DNA of 64,000 nucleotides from Candidatus Methanoperedenaceae archaeon GB37 (GCA_905171695.1 LR991653.1:1146150-1210149), one strand, 5' to 3'. Positions 14,471 to 54,874 are shown, counted from the first letter of the stretch. The notes: generated from the letters alone by a model not told the origin. Numbers and translations: made by a program.

Positions 14471-15011
14471 TCACATTGCAAAGTCGGATAGTGATGTCTG
14501 TCCTTCTTTGATTGTTTTCTGTTTCAAGCTGAAGTGCTCGTAGTCATCATCTTGCCAGTGTTTCTTTTGCTGTCGTTCGATATAGAACTGAACCATGTCG
14601 CTCGTAACGCGTCCCACTGATTCGTAGAAGTAACCGTCTGACCAGAAATGGTCTCCCCAGAGTTTTTTTGGAAACATCATTCCAACACTGTCTTCGAACA
14701 ACGTAGGATGAATATCCTTTCAGTTGTTCTGCGAGCTTGGCAGCACTATAGTTCTTGCAATCAATAACGAATACATGCATATGATCAGGTCCAAACTCTA
14801 TTGCACCTATTCGAACTTTGAGCATCCGGGCTTTGTCCCAAATAGCCGTTCGTACCACATTCTGAATCTCTTCTGATAAAAACACATCTCACCTGTATTT
14901 CGGCGTGCCTTGATTACTACGTAATCAAGGGTTGCTTACGAAGTAAGCAACCAACTGAAGGTGAAAGTTCGATCCGCCGAAACTGTGTCGAGCTGCCGCT
15001 AATCGAGTCAT
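14471..15011 (-). pseudogene. tnpA: Y1 HUH transposase TnpA, inactivated three ways
   Basis: MTRLAAARHSFGGSNFHLQ[45-bp insert]TPKYR*DVF...PDHMHVF (HUH)...frameshift in the A7 run...FWSDGYFYESVG (catalytic Tyr region). Confidence 0.88.
14908..14952. repeat. 45-bp twin-hairpin insertion within tnpA
   Basis: CCTTGATTAC-TAC-GTAATCAAGG followed by (G)GTTGCTTAC-GAA-GTAAGCAACC. Removing it restores CTT CAG TTC ACG CCG (LQFTP); no target duplication. Confidence 0.85.
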
Positions 15012-40032: not shown

Positions 40033-41544
40033 ATGCGATCGGTAATCATTGACGGATACGTGGACGAACCAGCATGTCTCGGCGTTCCACCCTACACATC
40101 CCCCTACCCAAGATACATCGCAGGAGCCATGATCGACGCTGGAGCAAAACCAAGAGACGTGCACTACTACACAATCGACCAGCTCCGAGCCGAACCCGGG
40201 ATCATAGGTATAATGGATCGAGCAGACCTGATCGTCGTCGTCGCTGGACTAACAGTCCCAGGCCGCTACTTGAACGCAAAACCCATAACCATCCGTGAAG
40301 TAGGAGACTTTATAGCACGCTACAATGAAAAAATCCTCGTCGGAGGACCCATACGCCTGAGCCACGAATCAGTGCTGAGAAGTGAGTATGTTGCAGAGAA
40401 AGACCTTGAAGCACGAGTCTTTGACCGCCTCACCGAGAAGAGCGAGACAGATCGCTGGCGCAGAACAAGTGAAGTCAAACGATGGAGCGTGAAAGGCGCG
40501 CAGATAATACAGAGACACCCACACTTCCCACACATCATGTGTGAGATCGAGACGTACCGCGGGTGCCCAAGAGAGAGACACTGCTCCTTCTGCACAGAAC
40601 CACTCTACCCGCACTCCTCACGAGAGATCCATGACGTGGTGGACGAAGTCAGAGCACTCTACGAGTCCGGTGCAAGATACTTCAGAATCGGAAGACAACC
40701 CGACCTCTTCAGCTACAAGAGAATCGAAACCAACAGCGGATTCAAACCAGACCCCACCGCAATAGAGAAGCTCTACAGAGGCATCAGAAGAGCCGCACCA
40801 GAACTCAAGGTGCTTCACATGGACAACCTCAATCCTGCAACCATAATAGAATACCCAGACGAATCAAGAGAGATCGCAAAGACCATCATCAAATACCACA
40901 CTCCAGGCGACGTGGCAGCAATGGGCGTTGAGAGCAGCGACCCGAGAGTGATCCGCGAGAACAACCTCCAAGTATACCCGGAAGACGTGATAAAAGCCGT
41001 TGAACTGATAAACGAAGTAGGATCCATCCGGGGTGAAAACGGACTACCAGAACTCCTACCAGGGATAAACCTTCTCTACGGCTTGAAAGGCGAGAGCAAG
41101 AGAACATATCAACACAACCTCGAACTACTCCAGCGAATACACGAGAAAGGTCTTCTACTCCGCCGAATAAACATCAGAAAGGCAATGAGATTCAAAGAGA
41201 CCCCACTCGGAGAGACCAAGGTCCACATCGAGAAGAAGCTCTTTTACCACCACAGAGAGACAATCAAACGAAGAATCGAAGTCCCGATGCTAAAAGAGAT
41301 AGCACCCAAAGGAACCATAATAAAAGAGATCCTAACCGAAGCACACCATGGCAGATTCACACTCGGACGCCAAATAGCATCCTACCCACTCCTGATAAAG
41401 ATAGAAGGGATACTGAAACTCGGGATCTTCGTGGACGCAGCAGTGACAGGGCACAGCCATCGCTCACTAACAGCCATACCGGTGGGGAGGATGCGAAATA
41501 TTGAAGTAGGATCAGAGCCAACTCACCGTCTCTCAGGATACTGA
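40033..41544 (+). CDS. Archaeal radical SAM protein (CX5CX2C) with C-terminal TRAM-like region
   Basis: DGYVDEPACLGVPPY, EIETYRGCPRERHCSFC, GRQIASYP. The last ~21 codons lie inside the rps8e-associated repeat. Confidence 0.85.
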   Translation: MRSVIIDGYVDEPACLGVPPYTSPYPRYIAGAMIDAGAKPRDVHYYTIDQLRAEPGIIGIMDRADLIVVVAGLTVPGRYLNAKPITIREVGDFIARYNEKILVGGPIRLSHESVLRSEYVAEKDLEARVFDRLTEKSETDRWRRTSEVKRWSVKGAQIIQRHPHFPHIMCEIETYRGCPRERHCSFCTEPLYPHSSREIHDVVDEVRALYESGARYFRIGRQPDLFSYKRIETNSGFKPDPTAIEKLYRGIRRAAPELKVLHMDNLNPATIIEYPDESREIAKTIIKYHTPGDVAAMGVESSDPRVIRENNLQVYPEDVIKAVELINEVGSIRGENGLPELLPGINLLYGLKGESKRTYQHNLELLQRIHEKGLLLRRINIRKAMRFKETPLGETKVHIEKKLFYHHRETIKRRIEVPMLKEIAPKGTIIKEILTEAHHGRFTLGRQIASYPLLIKIEGILKLGIFVDAAVTGHSHRSLTAIPVGRMRNIEVGSEPTHRLSGY

Positions 41545-41733
41545 AGATGAAGTGGCAGGGAATCTCTAGGCGTAAATCGACTGGTGGTCGATTGAGAAGG
41601 GCGCGTGGTGGTAAGAAGAAGTACAGGCTCCTTCGGGCAAAGATGGTGAATGTGGTGGATCGAGAGAGTGGGGTTGTCACGAGGGCAGAGATCGAGACTG
41701 TTGTGGAGAACTTGGCAAACCAGCACTATGTGA
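41477..41733 (+). repeat. Left copy of the rps8e upstream region and 5' end, with a 93-bp in-frame deletion
   Basis: Matches 44769-45118. The deletion lies between two GGCGCGTGG 9-mers (44892-44900 and 44985-44993 in the intact copy). Confidence 0.95.
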
Positions 41734-42902
41734 TGAGGAAAGGACTTGTTTTTGGTATTTTAGTAATGCTTTTCGTGGCAATGATGGCTTCTGTCGTGGC
41801 AGTTGTTGCAGATGAAGGTGAGCTTTTAGTTTCGATAAAGGGATATTCTCCATCTTTAAGCCCTGATTGGAACAAAGTGGCTTATCTTGATTCATTGGAT
41901 GATGGTGATGATTCATGGATAGAACAACTTTGGGTAATGAATATAGATGAGAGTGATTTGAAGAAATTGGATGAATGGGAACATGCTTTTGGCACAATCA
42001 CAGTCACAATAGAGGGATGGAATCCCGATGGACAGAAACTCCTTTATTCTGTTTATAATCGTGAAGATGACACAGGAAATCTCTGGGTTGTAAATTCAGA
42101 TGGAACTGGAAAGAAAAAAATAGCTGAATATGCTTCAAAACACTCTCCTGTATCACGTTGGAGTCCTGATGGAAGTAAAATAGCTTTTGAGAGCGGATAT
42201 TATGGAGAAGGTATTCTTGTTGTAAATTCTGATGGCAGTAATAAGACTCTCATAACTAGAGATGGTAGTCTGAGATATTGGACTCCTGATGGGAAAAAGA
42301 TAATTTTTTTAAAATATGATGAACATAATCACGTTTTTAACTTCTGGGAAATAGATTTAGATAGTGGCATTTCAAAGAACATATATAGTGGGGAATTCGG
42401 AATAATTAGTCCTGATAGAAGTAAGATAGCATCCCAGAACTTTCACGGTGGCAGTGGCATTTGGATTTCCGATATAGATGGAAGCAATCTAAAAGAATTA
42501 TCATATTACACTCCATCTCTGTATCCCTGCTGGAGCCCAGATAGTAAGAGAATAGCATTTATCGATGAGGGGATACATCACGGTATTTGGGTAATAAATT
42601 CGGATGGAAGCAATGAGAAAAAAGTGAAAGAAATGTCGTATGAAGATCTTACGCAAAAATTACAATCAGTTGGAGTAACAAATATCTTATTATGGAGCAA
42701 AGACGGAAGCAAGATAGCTTACGCAATGCGTGAGAATGAGACTACTAACATTTACACGATAAACGTAGACAAATCATTTTATGCAAAACCATCAGCAGGT
42801 GAAACGCCAACAGAAAAGCAACCAATGATACCTGACTTTGAAGCAGTATTTACAATCGCAGGATTGTTAGCAGTGACATATCTTATGAGAAGGAGGAAGT
42901 AA
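41733..42902 (+). CDS. TolB-like/PD40 beta-propeller surface protein with signal peptide and PGF-CTERM-like anchor; in frame with the S8e remnant from 41547
   Basis: MRKGLVFGILVMLF signal peptide, repeated WSPDGSKIAF, C-terminal PMIPDFEAVFTIAGLLAVTYLMRRRK. Confidence 0.88.
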   Translation: MRKGLVFGILVMLFVAMMASVVAVVADEGELLVSIKGYSPSLSPDWNKVAYLDSLDDGDDSWIEQLWVMNIDESDLKKLDEWEHAFGTITVTIEGWNPDGQKLLYSVYNREDDTGNLWVVNSDGTGKKKIAEYASKHSPVSRWSPDGSKIAFESGYYGEGILVVNSDGSNKTLITRDGSLRYWTPDGKKIIFLKYDEHNHVFNFWEIDLDSGISKNIYSGEFGIISPDRSKIASQNFHGGSGIWISDIDGSNLKELSYYTPSLYPCWSPDSKRIAFIDEGIHHGIWVINSDGSNEKKVKEMSYEDLTQKLQSVGVTNILLWSKDGSKIAYAMRENETTNIYTINVDKSFYAKPSAGETPTEKQPMIPDFEAVFTIAGLLAVTYLMRRRK

Positions 42903-42910
42903 AACAACGT

Positions 42911-42954
42911 GGATGCCCCACAATTCATTGCGGTGTGGCGTGGTCGGGGCTTTT
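42911..42954 (+). repeat. Inter-cassette hairpin repeat R1
   Basis: GGATGCCCCACAA-TTCA-TTGCGGTGTGGCGTGGTCGGGGCTTTT, 9 nt after the beta-propeller stop. Confidence 0.9.
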
Positions 42955-43184
42955 TATATGAAGAAGTTTTAAATATTACTATGTGGTGAATAACCATGGA
43001 TAAAAAAACTGGACCAGTGGCATGCCGAGAAGCTGAAGCATTGGGATTACTTGGCAAGTTGAAATACTGAGCAAGGCAACGAGTAAAGGAAGAGAGAGGA
43101 GAGGTGATGAATGGCTCTTTTAATGGTGTTTTTGGGGCTTTGGGTTCGAAGTGTAGTGATGGAAGGTAAGGAGAGAAGTAAAAA

Positions 43185-43406
43185 ATGAAATTCCAAGTTG
43201 TGATTGAAGAAGATTTAGAGGACGGAGGATATATTGTGCATTGTCCAGCTCTTAAAGGGTGTTGGTCACAAGGAGATACGATAGAAGAAGCGTTAGATAA
43301 CATAAAAGAGGCGATTGTCGGGTATTTAAAAACATTGAACGAGAGAGCGATGCGCGATGCTAAAAGTACAGATAAAGCTCTGATCAAAGAAGTGGCAGTG
43401 GTATAA
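43185..43406 (+). CDS. hicB: HicB-family antitoxin
   Basis: GGYIVHCPALKGCWSQGDTIEEALDNIKEAI. Confidence 0.9.
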   Translation: MKFQVVIEEDLEDGGYIVHCPALKGCWSQGDTIEEALDNIKEAIVGYLKTLNERAMRDAKSTDKALIKEVAVV

Positions 43407-43409
43407 ATT

Positions 43410-43655
43410 GTGGATAAACTTCCTCGATGGTCAGGCAAAAAGATTATCAGCGTATTTAAAAAAGACGGCTGGACTGTGGATCGCATCGAGGGAAGCCATT
43501 ATATTCTGGTAAAGGAGGGAACAGAGAAAATCTTGGTTGTACCAGTGCATGGAAATGAGCCAATAAAAGTTGGACTCCTAAAAGGGCTGATAAAAGATGC
43601 TGGACTTACAAATGAGGAGTTTTTAAGGCTTTGTTATAATAAGAGAATGGGATAG
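43410..43655 (+). CDS. hicA: HicA-family toxin (intact)
   Basis: LPRWSGKKII..F..DGW...RIEGSHYIL...VVPVH...GLLKGLIKDAGL. Confidence 0.9.
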   Translation: MDKLPRWSGKKIISVFKKDGWTVDRIEGSHYILVKEGTEKILVVPVHGNEPIKVGLLKGLIKDAGLTNEEFLRLCYNKRMG

Positions 43656-43663
43656 ATGTACTG

Positions 43664-43708
43664 GGATGCCCCGCAATTCACTGCAGGGGCGGGGTGGTCG
43701 GGGCTTTT
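43664..43708 (+). repeat. Inter-cassette hairpin repeat R2
   Basis: GGATGCCCCGCAA-TTCA-CTGCAGGGGCGGGGTGGTCGGGGCTTTT, 9 nt after the hicA stop. Confidence 0.9.
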
Positions 43709-43727
43709 AAGAATGTAGGAGGGAGAT

Positions 43728-43869
43728 ATGACATCAGGATTTGGTCAATGCCCAAAATGCGGAAATATGTCGTTAGTTGTAGTAGGGGAAGATCGAGATG
43801 AAAAAAGGAAATCTACGACGCGTATATGTCAAATGCGCTGCCTGCGGGTTTAGACGAGAACTTTATTGA
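43728..43869 (+). pseudogene. Small zinc-ribbon protein, +1 frameshift in an A6 run
   Basis: AGGAGGGAG RBS. Corrected frame MTSGFGQCPKCGNMSLVVVGEDRDEKGNLRRVYVKCAACGFRRELY (46 aa, two CxxC). Confidence 0.55.
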
Positions 43870-43947
43870 TAAAGAGCCACACATAACCACAAAGTTTGGA
43901 GGAGATAGATACTTAAGTGCTTGTAGAATATACTATTGTTGGTGAAC

Positions 43948-44187
43948 ATGACTGGGTCTAAAAAAGTCCATCTCCCTGTCCTTGTGGAGAAGGATGAGGA
44001 TGGTTTTTTTGTGGTAGAATGTCCGCTTCTTCAGGGATGCTATACGCAGGGAAAAACACTGGACGAGGCGTTAAAAAACATACACGAAGTGATTGAACTA
44101 TGTCTTGAGGAGCAGAAGGAAGAAATTGTGGAACAGCTTGACTCAATCCAGGAGTTCAGTTACCACGTCGTGTCGGTAGAGATATGA
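43948..44187 (+). CDS. hicB: HicB-family antitoxin
   Basis: EKDEDGFFVVECPLLQGCYTQGKTLDEALKNI. Confidence 0.88.
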   Translation: MTGSKKVHLPVLVEKDEDGFFVVECPLLQGCYTQGKTLDEALKNIHEVIELCLEEQKEEIVEQLDSIQEFSYHVVSVEI

Positions 44188-44415
44188 GCAGATTGCCAGT
44201 TATCTCTGGAGAAAAAGCAATTTAAATGTTTTGAAAAGCTTGATTATGTAGTCGTAAGGCAAAAGGGTAGTCATATCCGCATGAGACATAAATCTGACAA
44301 GAGCAGAAAGCCGTTAACGATTCCTAAACACAAAGTGCTTGGCAAAGGACTATTAAGAAAACTGTTAAGAGATGCTGAAATAAGCGTTGACGAGTTTAAC
44401 GAGTTGTTACGATGA
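44184..44415 (+). pseudogene. hicA: HicA-family toxin, +1 frameshift at codon 13-14
   Basis: MSRLPVISGEKAI*; with one T removed the frame continues KCFEKLDYVVVRQKGSHIRM...TIPKHKVLGKGLLRKLLRDA. Confidence 0.85.
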
Positions 44416-44434
44416 GGTTCGACAAACTAACGAG

Positions 44435-44476
44435 GGATGCCCCGCAATTCATTGTGGTGTGGCGTGGTTTGGGCTT
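44435..44476 (+). repeat. Inter-cassette hairpin repeat R3
   Basis: GGATGCCCCGCAA-TTCA-TTGTGGTGTGGCGTGGTTTGGGCTT, 20 nt after the hicA stop. Confidence 0.9.
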
Positions 44477-44490
44477 GGAGAGTGATGTAA

Positions 44491-44723
44491 ATGGAACTAT
44501 TATTTGAAAGACATGATTTTGTTTTTATGAATAAAAAAATTGATTTCCCACTTATTAAAAACAAAGTTGGAGATATAGCTCCTCGAATCATCGCAGGTGC
44601 TGCAGGAGGTTTAGTTACAGGTAACCAGTTACAGGTAACCCTGTCGCGGGAATTGTAGGATTTGTAGCAGGATATATCAGTAAAGACGCTATTCGTATAT
44701 CTACAAGTAAAGTAAAGGATTAA
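44491..44723 (+). pseudogene. Small glycine-zipper-like membrane protein frameshifted by a 14-bp duplication
   Basis: AGTTACAGGTAACC x2 at 44613-44640. Corrected 72-aa frame contains IIAGAAGGLVTGNPVAGIVGFVAGYI. Confidence 0.55.
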
Positions 44724-44838
44724 TAAATCCATTCAGAAGACATTTAGGTTTTCATACAAATGATTTTGTACCGGTGGGGAGGATGCGAAATATTGAAGTA
44801 GGATCAGAGCCAACTCATCGTCTCTGAGGTTACTGAAG

Positions 44839-45228
44839 ATGAAGTGGCAGGGAATCTCTAGGCGTAAATCGACTGGTGGTCGATTGAGAAGGGCGCGTGG
44901 CAAGAGGAAGTTTGAAGCTGGGCGTGAGGCGGCTGAGACGCACGTGGGGGCGCATGTGAAGGAGGATGTGAAGAAGGTTATAAAGGCGCGTGGTGGTACG
45001 AAGAAGTGCAGGCTCCTTCGGGCAAAGATGGTTAATGTGGTGGATCGAGAGAGTGGGGTTGTTACGAGGGCAGAGATCGAGACTGTTGTGGAGAATTTGG
45101 CAAACCAGCACTATGTGAGGCGTGATATCGTGACGAAGGGTGCTGTGATCAAGACCAGTGCGGGGATTGCTCGTGTCACAAGTAAGCCTGGCCAGGATGG
45201 TATAGTGAATGCAGTATTGATAGAATGA
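44839..45228 (+). CDS. rps8e: 30S ribosomal protein S8e (intact copy)
   Basis: RRKSTGGRL...[39 protein letters not shown]. Confidence 0.96.
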
Positions 45229-54115: not shown

Positions 54116-54700
54116 TTACAGAGAAACTGGAAAAAAAGAGACCCTAATATCTTTATTCTCTGTTTTAGTGTTGCATGAAATCTTTTGGGTGGATTTCATG
54201 CTCCGAAAGGTTTGATGCTCAAGTTCCAGGTCTATGTTTTTCAGTGCATCTATAGAGCCAGGGAGCTCTATCAACGATAAATTCTGGTTTCTTCTCACGC
54301 ACTTCTCTGAAGGACCTTGTAACAAGATAATTTCTGTTTGTATAAATTCTCATCATGATTAACTCGTTTTTCTCAACATCTACCGCAGAATAAGCATAGT
54401 ACGTATTTTTATCTTGCTTTAACAACTCTTTCGTCTAACGCTATCAGATATCTTCTCTTCTTCTCCGATACAAGCAAGCAATCTCTCTTCAAACTTCCCT
54501 GTTCCAAAGAGAGGTTTTAGAGACCGGACGAAGCCAGAGAGAGAACTCTAGCAGTCCTCCCGAGAGAAGACGTCTGAATACAGGTTACAATACCGGGAAT
54601 CTCAACATAGAAAAGGCACCTTATTCCTCTCAAACACCTTCAACTCTTCAACAATCTCCCTTACCCTCAGCATAAATAAAAGATAGTCTCTTGTATTTAT
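54116..54700 (-). pseudogene. IS6-family transposase remnant
   Basis: YLIALDERVVK, YAYSAVDVEKNEL...RNYL, PEFIVDRAPWL. Confidence 0.7.
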
Positions 54701-54874
54701 AATTTTATGTGGACGGATCCATCCCGTTTTACAGCAGAGCTTATATAGTAGGAGGTAGGGTCTTCATAGTTGTTGATCGAGGCTGATCGGTCTTTTAGTC
54801 CCTCGCTTCTTCGTTTCAGATTAAATATCTAAAAAGAGTTTCTGCGTAGTAGAAAGGTGTGAAGGTGTGCTGGT

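Follow-up and report, generated by a model that had tools for sequence, protein, structure and literature searches.

Ca. Ethanoperedens thermophilum, an archaeon that oxidises ethane, carries a second copy, 350 bp long, of the 5' region of rps8e. This copy, comprising a promoter-like block, a ribosome-binding site (Shine-Dalgarno), the ATG and the first codons, lies 3 kb upstream of the real gene, where it runs in frame into a gene for a beta-propeller protein. We put the probability at roughly 60% that the locus is a chimeric gene produced, in a variable cassette region upstream of rps8e, by illegitimate recombination that relied on microhomology, rather than by site-specific integration. The chimera itself is a real and fairly ordinary recombination product, and we reject the idea that it marks a new kind of integration site. 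The features on which the argument turns, within a window of 64,000 nucleotides (the whole stretch of DNA analysed), are as follows.

40033..41544, + strand: radical SAM gene, 503 aa (Pfam Radical_SAM)
41477..41733, + strand: left repeat, 70 nt of rps8e upstream sequence plus S8e codons 1-62, with an internal 93-bp deletion
41494..41522, + strand: copy of the rps8e upstream block, GAAATATTGAAGTAGGATCAGAGCCAACT, identical to 44786-44814; putative TATA/BRE-to-TSS region
41547..42902, + strand: chimeric ORF, 451 aa; S8e 1-62 (with the deletion), signal peptide, PD40 beta-propeller, PGF-CTERM anchor
41733..42902, + strand: native propeller cassette gene, 389 aa, beginning where its homologues start
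42911..42952, + strand: hairpin motif 1 (GGATGCCCCACAATTCATTGCGG..GGTCGGGGCTT), 8 nt past the propeller stop
43185..43655, + strand: hicB1 (43185-43406) and hicA1 (43410-43655); Pfam HicB_lk_antitox, HicA_toxin
43664..43705, + strand: hairpin motif 2
43948..44415, + strand: hicB2 (43948-44187) and hicA2 (44184-44415); Pfam HicB_lk_antitox, HicA_toxin
44435..44476, + strand: hairpin motif 3
44527..44724, + strand: cassette 4, with an ORF for a small membrane protein with a glycine zipper, broken by a 13-nt tandem duplication
44769..45118, + strand: right repeat, the 70 nt upstream of rps8e plus codons 1-93 of the functional gene
44839..45228, + strand: rps8e, intact, 129 aa

A sequence-only reading of this DNA had described 41477-41733 and 44769-45118 as direct repeats, and a repeat search and pairwise alignment agree, at 96-98% identity (41477-41608 with 44769-44900, 98%; 41597-41733 with 44982-45118, 96%). 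The alignment also bears out the loss it had proposed of 93 bp from the left copy, which appears as a single gap bounded by two GGCGCGTGG 9-mers (right-copy positions 44892-44900 and 44985-44993). The duplicated segment occurs at two sites in the entire 1.92-Mb genome, the left and right repeats, and rps8e, which matches Pfam Ribosomal_S8e at 127.9 bits over the full-length model, is the sole full-length S8e copy genome-wide. To these observations we add that the final 22 codons of the radical SAM gene (41477-41544) fall inside the left repeat, and that the tail of this protein beyond ..TAIPV has no homology to the tails of its orthologues, two of which, from sister species, end ..TAMPVEKDDHRKNDL and ..TAIPIEKQHNNHP. 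Between the repeats, the insert (41734-44768) has a GC content of 0.34-0.44, compared with ~0.50-0.55 in its flanks and 0.465 in the whole genome.

The left repeat ends at ATG 41733, in frame with the propeller gene, and the frame from the S8e start through the propeller to the PGF-CTERM anchor is indeed open from 41547 to 42902 as had been claimed, with Pfam matches to Ribosomal_S8e (residues 17-76), PD40 and PGF-CTERM (431-450). The closest homologues of the propeller, 70-79% identical and found in ANME-1/Methanophagales-type contigs, open with M..K.LVFG at the position of 41733; because they start at the Met matching this codon, the native 5' region of the propeller gene must have been replaced. 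There is no Shine-Dalgarno ahead of ATG 41733, and the propeller has neither a ribosome-binding site nor a promoter of its own. In the annotation of strain GB50 the chimeric ORF is a 451-aa 'TolB', but this Prokka label is a misnomer: similarity to bacterial TolB (Tol-Pal) is at the level of PD40 repeats only (partial matches to PDB TolB chains, E 4e-7 to 8e-6), the protein carries an archaeal PGF-CTERM anchor, and there are no tol/pal neighbours. The anchor matches PF18204 at 29.6-34.8 bits, above the cut-off, and the genome encodes archaeosortase A (TIGR04125, 230 bits, C1:775537-776301) together with six further PGF-CTERM matches. With a PGF motif, a TM helix, a basic tail and ArtA in the genome, the propeller is a predicted substrate of the PGF-CTERM/archaeosortase A pathway.

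The insert is a fragment of a cassette array, in which the propeller, two hicBA pairs and the small membrane ORF are punctuated by a 42-nt hairpin motif. Both pairs consist of adjacent HicB_lk_antitox and HicA_toxin genes, as expected of HicAB type II toxin-antitoxin systems (E-values: HicB1 9e-11, HicA1 1e-18, HicB2 4e-10 and, reading through a frameshift, HicA2 9e-16). The frameshift, one extra T near 44221, is present in this strain, hicA2 being intact in strain E50; cassette 4, after which there is no hairpin motif, has an intact ORF in contig L097. The motif is conserved and widespread among ANME-type archaea, and the same kind of motif lies 3' of the propeller homologues in other contigs. 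Neighbouring cassettes vary between strains at or near it: contigs L096, L100 and L098/99 carry different cassettes upstream of the same hicBA array, and their homology to the window restarts at the hairpin motif or in the PGF-CTERM tail. As the homology of L096 and L100 resumes at or inside motif 1, cassettes are exchangeable at the repeat. The three local motif copies show no stronger folding than shuffled sequence does (z -0.9 to +1.0).

The new junctions are all at microhomologies of 6-9 nt, which indicates illegitimate recombination. Where the radical SAM gene meets the repeat, ACCGGTGG can be set against ..GCCAGTAG.. of the orthologues, and where the repeat meets the propeller, ATGTGA against CATGATGA/CATGGTGA of the homologues, these two cases being deduced from orthologues and homologues 70-84% identical rather than from the true parental sequences; the third, at the internal deletion of the left copy, is formed by the 9-mers themselves. 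An event of this kind would have placed the 350-bp copy, with its 93 codons, after the 3' end of the radical SAM gene and ahead of the start codon of a PD40-propeller/PGF-CTERM cassette gene that had no promoter. The copy could be a templated patch laid down by serial template switching; alternatively, a 3-kb fragment of a foreign array could have been captured between two breaks, either staggered or on sister chromosomes. The loss of 93 bp between the two 9-mers would belong to the same class of event.

What the propeller would have gained is most easily seen upstream of the S8e ATG. The block from -54 to -26, with GAAATATTGAAGTAGGATCA..CCAACT, is conserved across the genus, being kept in a sister species (genome G001) where a different gene, MoeA, lies upstream; the block at 41494-41522 is a putative copy of the rps8e promoter. 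Promoter capture by the propeller is thus structurally sound. The earlier proposal that the propeller had captured a ribosomal-protein promoter and ribosome-binding site holds insofar as a promoter-like block and an RBS lie inside the repeat and the propeller has neither of its own, but strong expression at a ribosomal level is not supported. In published RNA-seq (three replicates; Table S3, PMC7175092), raw reads were 151.5/111/88 for the fusion gene (1356 nt), 77.5/55/77 for the radical SAM gene (1512 nt) and 218/175.5/155 for rps8e (390 nt). The read density of the fusion gene is therefore about twice that of the radical SAM gene and about one-fifth that of rps8e, where these are per-gene counts blind to transcript starts and reads inside the repeat are ambiguous between the left and right copies. 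A density some 5-fold below that of rps8e despite an identical promoter-like block counts against our preferred explanation. Under that explanation, transcription would start from the copied S8e promoter, with a contribution from transcripts that read through from the radical SAM gene, and translation would start at the S8e ATG and pass into the propeller without a change of frame. The 62 basic S8e residues might then be merely an over-long n-region before the signal-peptide core, to be removed by signal peptidase, and the mature propeller would be anchored via archaeosortase A.

The strongest alternative, possible though we consider it unlikely, is that the fusion ORF arose by accident and is either not expressed or without function, the propeller being a decaying passenger whose frame is open through youth. 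The proposal that the frame had been kept by selection finds no support, since propeller pN/pS is 0.8-1.1 across all three strain pairs and the S8e fragment of the left copy gathers changes at otherwise invariant residues (e.g. G5E); purifying selection on the chimeric gene is not detectable in these comparisons, and a pN/pS of ~1 is also the value expected of a decaying non-functional gene. The modest transcript level fits an accident too, as do the passengers nearby that are already broken in this strain (the hicA2 frameshift and the cassette 4 duplication) and our own estimate of ~25 substitutions on the tree, at which a lack of stops is unsurprising. On the other hand, the fusion gene is transcribed more than the gene upstream of it, 451-452 open codons are kept in all three sequence variants (those of this genome, of strain E50 and of L093, a contig from a JGI metagenome) even with one 3-nt in-frame indel, the PGF-CTERM sorting machinery is present, and surface proteins are often near or above a pN/pS of 1 for adaptive reasons.

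Comparison of the strains suggests that the chimera is young. In the right 134 nt of the left repeat, E37 (the present genome) and E50 are identical, whereas their right copies differ there at nine sites, five unique to one strain and four to the other; pS is 0.010 for the propeller, while the radical SAM gene and S8e reach 0.083 and 0.075, respectively. On this evidence the island and left repeat coalesce later than the flanking core genes, a comparison that rests mainly on the 0-versus-9 contrast and the pS of the two immediate flanks, the E37-E50 divergence landscape being patchy. Being younger than their flanks, they are likely therefore to have spread between strains by recombination, and in the reading we prefer this would have been homologous recombination after the strains diverged.

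The same pattern gives some encouragement to a less probable idea, that the island is mobile by homology alone: a 3-kb circle would be excised by RadA-mediated recombination between the S8e repeats and re-integrated Campbell-style at the 5' region of rps8e in cells that do not have the island, the repeat serving as an integrase-free attachment site at which viable crossovers, those that keep S8e intact, fall only to the left of the 93-bp deletion. Low E37-E50 divergence does set in close to where the left repeat starts, within ~20 nt of its left edge: differences in the radical SAM gene are last dense at 41425-41466, and there are just 2 in the next 257 nt; right of the deletion the left copies are mutually identical and the right copies strain-specific; the left copy of L093 has right-copy-type bases, which indicates that the copies exchange sequence; and the E50 assembly contig stops ~48 nt short of the right repeat. 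However, neither a circular junction nor an island-free allele has been observed, the origin of the first copy is left unexplained, the right copies differ at 2 sites in the part that would derive from the circle, and plain double-crossover import of a chromosomal segment yields a similar pattern. More doubtful again is an extension of this idea, in which the rps8e segment would be a 'homology att site' for islands drawn from a hairpin-punctuated cassette pool common to ANME-1, ANME-2 and GoM-Arc1 archaea. Such islands would hop between strains via host recombination at the S8e copies, with crossovers confined by rps8e viability to the left of the 93-bp deletion, and their first promoter-less cassette would be put under a ribosomal-protein promoter much as integron Pc serves its array.

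Site-specific integration at rps8e with the duplication as the att repeat, which was the model of the sequence-only reading, is very unlikely. In its favour are the direct repeats around a low-GC insert of foreign-looking genes and the nearest propeller homologues in another order, Methanophagales. Yet that reading had itself recorded no integrase within the island, and Pfam scans of all island ORFs reveal no recombinase, integrase or transposase domain; nor is one adjacent, as the only Phage_integrase matches above cut-off in the genome, at C1:1118682 and C1:696185, lie more than 68 kb away. Rather than short repeats with an identical core of tens of bp, the repeats here span 257 and 350 bp, are 96-98% identical and differ by the internal 93-bp indel; they start at a codon within the upstream gene and stop exactly at the start codon of the cargo, with microhomology at the junctions. 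At the two sites elsewhere in the genome that carry the hairpin motif there is no comparable flanking duplication, and a short contig, L102, keeps the 73 nt left of the right repeat beside quite different DNA. As relatives at genus, family and order level do not share the gene order around either rps8e or the radical SAM gene, no empty rps8e site was found among them. Nor was the ancestral state before the event found, and the sole metagenome match to the junction between radical SAM gene and repeat likewise bears the island.

An assembly artefact, in which rps8e reads had been collapsed or joined into a chimeric left copy, can be dismissed: the 'complete' E50 genome was made by mapping reads onto the E37 reference and so is not independent, but the published genomes were built from PacBio long reads, which far exceed 350 bp in the closed genome, and besides the latter and LR991654.1 (GB50) the architecture is carried by a second E50 assembly contig and an unrelated short-read JGI contig (Ga0164310_10063156), which span radical SAM gene, left repeat and propeller with variants of their own.

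The locus thus lets one follow in a natural case, nucleotide by nucleotide, how a syntrophic and uncultured archaeon may wire a horizontally acquired surface-protein gene into expression by borrowing the promoter, RBS and start of an essential ribosomal gene while leaving that gene intact, and how such an islet can sweep between strains via recombination. It also carries a warning for annotation, as the first 62 residues of the public 451-aa 'TolB' are S8e. A lead of wider scope is the 42-nt hairpin motif, which is conserved and bounds exchangeable cassettes across ANME-type archaea.

Several known systems invite comparison. As at the ends of IS200/IS605 elements, a hairpin, here of 8 bp and between conserved flanks, marks the 3' edge of a mobile unit, there is no target-site duplication, and Y1_Tnp pseudogenes occur in the vicinity, at a distance of 1.1 kb from one copy of the motif in this genome and, in contig L096, 1.25 kb upstream of its first copy. 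However, only one kind of hairpin was seen, on the 3' side, with no matching left-end hairpin identified; the five Y1_Tnp matches, at four genomic loci and several with internal stops, include none in the island, which has no intact tnpA beside it; and peel-and-paste transposition does not account for the 350-bp S8e duplication. Integron cassette arrays and CALINs, which have been reported in Archaea (bioRxiv 10.1101/2022.02.06.479319), share with the insert small co-oriented cassettes, frequent TA pairs, a short structured repeat after each cassette, a promoter at the head, and strain-variable neighbouring cassettes with breakpoints at or within the repeat. The insert nevertheless does not qualify as either: there is no IntI or other tyrosine recombinase near the array, the 42-nt motif is strongly conserved in sequence, appears by eye to be without the RYYYAAC/GTTRRRY cores of attC and folds weakly here, no better than shuffled sequence, and the hicBA cassettes seem to be expressed on their own and more strongly. 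Campbell-type insertion-duplication likewise leaves an insert flanked by host direct repeats of a few hundred bp, one gene truncated and one whole, with no need of an integrase, but here no circular form or plasmid with an rps8e segment is known, and the left boundary lies in the upstream gene and the right at the start codon of the cargo. Finally, in chimeric genes formed by segmental duplication and recombination of the MMBIR/FoSTeS type, the donor is not, as here, an archaeal essential ribosomal gene nor the recipient a secreted PGF-CTERM protein in a cassette array, and the pathway in our case is one that we infer; the product is nonetheless alike, a 5'-end copy of a few hundred bp, placed some kb away with junctions at 6-9-nt microhomologies, that donates promoter, RBS and N-terminal codons to another ORF and leaves its source gene intact.

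The left copy of the duplicated segment (41477-41733) and the right copy (44769-45118), which is the start of the functional rps8e, appear in a repeat search as two direct repeats, 41477-41608 against 44769-44900 at 98% identity and 41597-41733 against 44982-45118 at 96%. Pairwise alignment gives the left copy one 93-bp gap relative to the right, edged by GGCGCGTGG 9-mers at right-copy positions 44892-44900 and 44985-44993, and it thereby bears out both the direct repeats and the loss between 9-mers that the sequence-only reading had described. The left copy holds the final 22 codons of a radical SAM gene, a 2-nt gap and S8e codons 1-62, and it ends at the ATG (41733) of a PD40 propeller gene; the continuous 451-aa S8e-propeller frame that had been proposed is indeed open from the S8e ATG at 41547 and matches three domains. 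No third copy of the repeat segment occurs in the 1,922,745-bp single-contig genome. The 3,035 bp separating the copies have a GC content of 0.34-0.44, with about 0.50-0.55 in the flanks and 0.465 in the whole genome.

Features of the locus (E37, this genome, probably that of culture Ethane37; E50, the second strain; C1, the whole genome sequence)
40033-41544: radical SAM gene, 3' end inside the left repeat
41547-42902: fusion ORF, 451 aa, with Ribosomal_S8e, PD40 and PGF-CTERM matches
41733-42902: cassette 1, propeller gene
Cassette 2: hicB1/hicA1
Listed between cassettes 2 and 3: 41-aa zinc-ribbon-like ORF
Cassette 3: hicB2/hicA2, hicA2 frameshifted in E37 and intact in E50
Cassette 4: small glycine-zipper ORF, broken in E37 and E50, intact in contig L097
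Including the right copy: rps8e, intact, 129 aa
42911-42952, 43664-43705 and 44435-44476: copies of a 42-nt hairpin motif
C1:571153-571195 and C1:1600195-1600237: the two motif copies elsewhere in the genome

The closest database entry to the fusion protein is 'Protein TolB [Candidatus Methanoperedenaceae archaeon GB50]' (451 aa, 98% identity). According to the genome paper, the closed PacBio genome of Ca. Ethanoperedens thermophilum (GoM-Arc1) comes from culture Ethane37 (E37), and Ethane50 (E50) is represented by a consensus made on the Ethane37 reference (ANI 98%, 1.92 Mb, GC 46.5%) as well as by a partial de novo assembly. LR991654.1 has the same locus structure at 98.1% identity over 13.4 kb, in the order radical SAM gene, left repeat with the 93-bp deletion, propeller, hicBA, hicBA, right repeat, rps8e; CAJIMI010000033.1, a contig of a second assembly, spans the left repeat and stops about 48 nt short of the right one. 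The radical SAM gene, left repeat, propeller, motif and hicBA1 also follow one another on a JGI metagenome contig of 2,294 bp, which comes from an unrelated short-read assembly, has substitutions of its own and keeps the fusion ORF open for 452 aa. Because the structure recurs in all three, misassembly of the left copy can for practical purposes be excluded.

A domain scan of the island ORFs found no recombinase or transposase domain, and the closest tyrosine-recombinase matches lie at least 68 kb away, so the earlier statement that no integrase lies inside the island stands. Identification of the propeller as TolB was rejected, as the similarity is confined to the PD40 repeats of TolB propellers and is accompanied by an archaeal anchor. 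In E37, hicA2 (44184-44415) carries one extra T near 44221 (ATTTAAATG) that frameshifts the toxin; the E50 gene is intact at 76 aa. The break in cassette 4 is a 13-nt tandem duplication (GTTACAGGTAACC twice, 44610-44640) that is absent from L097.

Each of cassettes 1-3 is followed, 8-20 nt 3' of its end, by the 42-nt repeat GGATGCCCCRCAATTCAYTG..GGTYKGGGCTT, which is also found 3' of the stop codons of propeller homologues in other contigs and usually lies directly 3' of toxin-antitoxin or other small cassettes. At its centre stands an 8-bp covarying hairpin (CCCCGCAA/TTGCGGGG, CACCCGAT/ATCGGGTG, CCCCCGAAT/ATTCGAGGG), and its 20-nt core is present in 33 MAG contigs, 26 of them archaeal (ANME-1, ANME-2 and related), the few bacterial matches being close to chance expectation. 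At the retrieved loci L043 and L045-L100, from ANME-1, ANME-2 and GoM-Arc1, it ends small cassettes in the layout GGATGC, 8-bp covarying hairpin, GTGGCRYGGNYGGGGCTT; adjacent cassettes vary from strain to strain, the breakpoints falling at the motif or within it, and one subclass has about 150 nt of conserved sequence on the upstream side. A strong local hairpin was rejected for the window copies, which fold no better than shuffled sequence, the perfect covarying 8-bp stem being that of the consensus from other genomes. A peptide gene (GCPAIHCG..) was likewise rejected: an in-frame ATG exists at four loci, and is missing from the copies here and from the class with long conserved upstream sequence. 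Rfam gave no match for the island and four motif loci, and a search of viral contigs found no motif. The other two genomic motif loci have no comparable flanking duplications; nearby direct repeats across the genome are many, mostly paralogues or IS elements, and proved uninformative. An orphan PGF-CTERM tail remnant with the start of a motif (C1:363200-363311, 76% identity to 42837-42940) adjoins IS fragments.

Among contigs encoding an identical HicB1, two (L096 and L100) have unrelated upstream cassettes, with homology to the window restarting at or inside the first motif copy, and two (L098 and L099) have a different PGF-CTERM protein, with homology restarting in the PGF-CTERM tail (42828). 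L102 encodes the same S8e as E50; its match to the window begins only at 44696, 73 nt before the right repeat starts, and is preceded by unrelated DNA. These differences argue that this population has a variable cassette site upstream of rps8e. The unrelated part, L102:1-520 (Logan SRR21545387), is a further variant of that site and contains a reverse-strand ORF between inverted repeats of roughly 12 nt (GGCGTCGGCGAGCC / GAGCCGACGCC). L096, from a related genome, has a Y1-transposase fragment and the roughly 280-nt dispersed repeat of E37; this MITE-like element (54449-54721 and more than 50 further copies genome-wide, 82-90% identity) came to light through its match to the first 300 nt of L096. 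Two Y1 matches are near motif copies, one at a distance of 1.1 kb and the other, in L096, 1.25 kb upstream of that contig's first motif; the hairpin motif may be connected with HUH transposition.

Y1 (IS200/IS605 TnpA) matches, several with internal stops
C1:240104-240346
C1:1326984-1327229
C1:1601373-1601594
14570-14906 (window)
L096:298-585

Three new joints bound or interrupt the left copy, each at a short identity. At the first, the radical SAM orthologues of two sister species end in ..TAMPVEKDDHRKNDL and ..TAIPIEKQHNNHP, the E37 tail differs, and orthologue similarity enters the repeat by about 8 nt (ACCGGTGG vs GCCAGTAG) and then ends. The second is the 93-bp loss with its two flanking 9-mers. 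At the third, between repeat and propeller, S8e reads ..CTATGTGAGG, the chimera ..CTATGTGATGAGGAAAGG and the homologues ..GCATGATGATAAAAGG or ..GCATGGTGATAAAAGG, around a common core ATG-TGA. Short identity at all three is what illegitimate recombination at microhomology, by serial template switching or end joining, leaves behind, and not the mark of a site-specific recombinase. A truncation of the radical SAM gene was considered and rejected: orthologues in the clade are already about 492-497 aa, without the HhH tail, and only the last ~10 residues are replaced here.

Two routes to this arrangement fit equally well. In one, a cassette array would already have stood between the radical SAM gene and rps8e, and a templated 350-bp patch would have replaced the last radical SAM codons, the spacer and the 5' region of the propeller gene. 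In the other, a linear array fragment would have been captured between breaks 350 bp apart, for example in two chromosome copies of a polyploid cell; no motif follows cassette 4, where one normally would, so the right end of such a fragment looks like a random cut. The pre-event state was not found, gene order at rps8e and at the radical SAM gene differing in every relative examined (30 nearest genomes), and no remnants of the junctions of G001, a same-genus genome, exist in E37. Exact-protein look-ups with S8e and the radical SAM protein returned no island-free contig. With gene order this variable, no empty rps8e site was found. The proposal that rps8e serves as an attachment site finds no support in an island that lacks a recombinase and has its joints at microhomology.

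The left and right copies of E37 and E50 were compared four ways. Over the 134 nt right of the deletion the two left copies are identical, whereas the right copies differ at nine sites (five changes unique to E37, four to E50), at each of which the left copy has the other strain's base. Had the duplication been passed on vertically from the split of the strains onwards, divergence of the unconstrained left copies would be expected to match or exceed that of the right copies; the 0-vs-9 split has a one-sided probability, by our own calculation, of about 0.002. Synonymous divergence between E37 and E50 is 0.010 for the propeller, about 0.088 for the radical SAM gene and about 0.079 for rps8e, and the metagenome variant gives the same ranking. 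From the 0-vs-9 contrast and the low propeller divergence we infer that the left repeat and island share a later ancestor than their flanks and were transferred between strains through homologous recombination. An unlikely alternative is Campbell-type excision and re-integration of the island through the repeat, which would give a circle junction reading ...GATTTTGT + repeat + ATGAGGAAAGG and an island-free allele in which the radical SAM gene is joined to full-length rps8e. Low divergence does start within ~20 nt of the left repeat's left edge, and two bases of right-copy type in the left copy of the metagenome variant indicate that the copies recombine with each other; however, the divergence landscape is patchy, and ordinary double-crossover import accounts for most of the pattern. 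At 41849-41873, seven E37/E50 substitutions fall within 25 nt (..SPSLSPDWNK.. to ..STYLSPDFKK..), both versions occurring in distant homologues, which suggests a small gene conversion from another propeller gene.

The anatomy of the promoter and ribosome-binding-site capture proposed earlier is supported. A 29-nt block, GAAATATTGAAGTAGGATCA.A.CCAACT, 54-26 nt upstream of the rps8e ATG, is almost identical in G001, where MoeA and not the radical SAM gene lies upstream of rps8e; the simplest reading is that this block is the core promoter and 5' leader of S8e. Both copies of the repeat contain it without any difference. Homologues of the propeller start with M(I/R/W)K.LV(F/L).. at the site equivalent to 41733 and in some cases have a basic extension of 14-18 residues; nucleotide homology to them begins at that ATG. 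Since no Shine-Dalgarno sequence or promoter of its own is left to the propeller and the S8e block lies inside the repeat, it would, on structure, be expressible only through the copied S8e signals or by read-through. Position 44830 lies 12 nt before the rps8e ATG, beside the Shine-Dalgarno sequence. There the functional copy reads T in E37 and G in E50, with A at the equivalent site in both left copies and the sister species, which means two independent changes in the real rps8e leader.

Raw reads per gene, published E50 triplicate RNA-seq (PMC7175092 Table S3)
Radical SAM gene, 1512 nt: 77.5/55/77
Fusion gene, 1356 nt: 151.5/111/88
hicB2, 240 nt: 320/369/321.5
hicA2, 231 nt: 977/851/768.5
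rps8e, 390 nt: 218/175.5/155

By these E50 raw counts, read density over the fusion gene is about twice that of the radical SAM gene, which fits an additional start within the repeat, and about one fifth of that of rps8e. The highest density of the locus by far belongs to hicB2/hicA2 (977 raw reads on 231 nt). Raw counts were used and the RPKM columns set aside: in rows FHEFKHOI_01305-01316 these are inconsistent with raw count, length and library size, in rps6e (row 00136) they are consistent, and the columns appear misaligned in part of the table (PMC7175092).

Selection for the open frame, which the sequence-only reading had entertained, is not supported. Propeller pN/pS is about 1 (1.09, 1.01 and 0.78 in three variant pairs; 0.04-0.25 in flanking core genes), the S8e fragment has changes where genuine S8e does not vary (G5E in the metagenome variant, for example), and three open frames are expected by chance at such low divergence, so the data do not demonstrate selection on the frame. 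They would fit a young gene, whether neutral, diversifying or at the onset of decay. Two points possibly favour a function for the fusion gene: the genome encodes archaeosortase A (230 bits) and has six further PGF-CTERM matches, and a 62-residue basic extension before the signal-peptide core need not prevent export.

As a recombinase-type island the locus fails on the defining features tested. It is an instance of a known event, the formation of a chimeric gene by duplication and illegitimate recombination, set here in a cassette system. In layout the cassette array resembles integron and CALIN arrays, but by the defining features tested it is not an integron; in its hairpin it resembles the ends of IS200/IS605 elements, and Y1 transposase pseudogenes lie near two motif copies.
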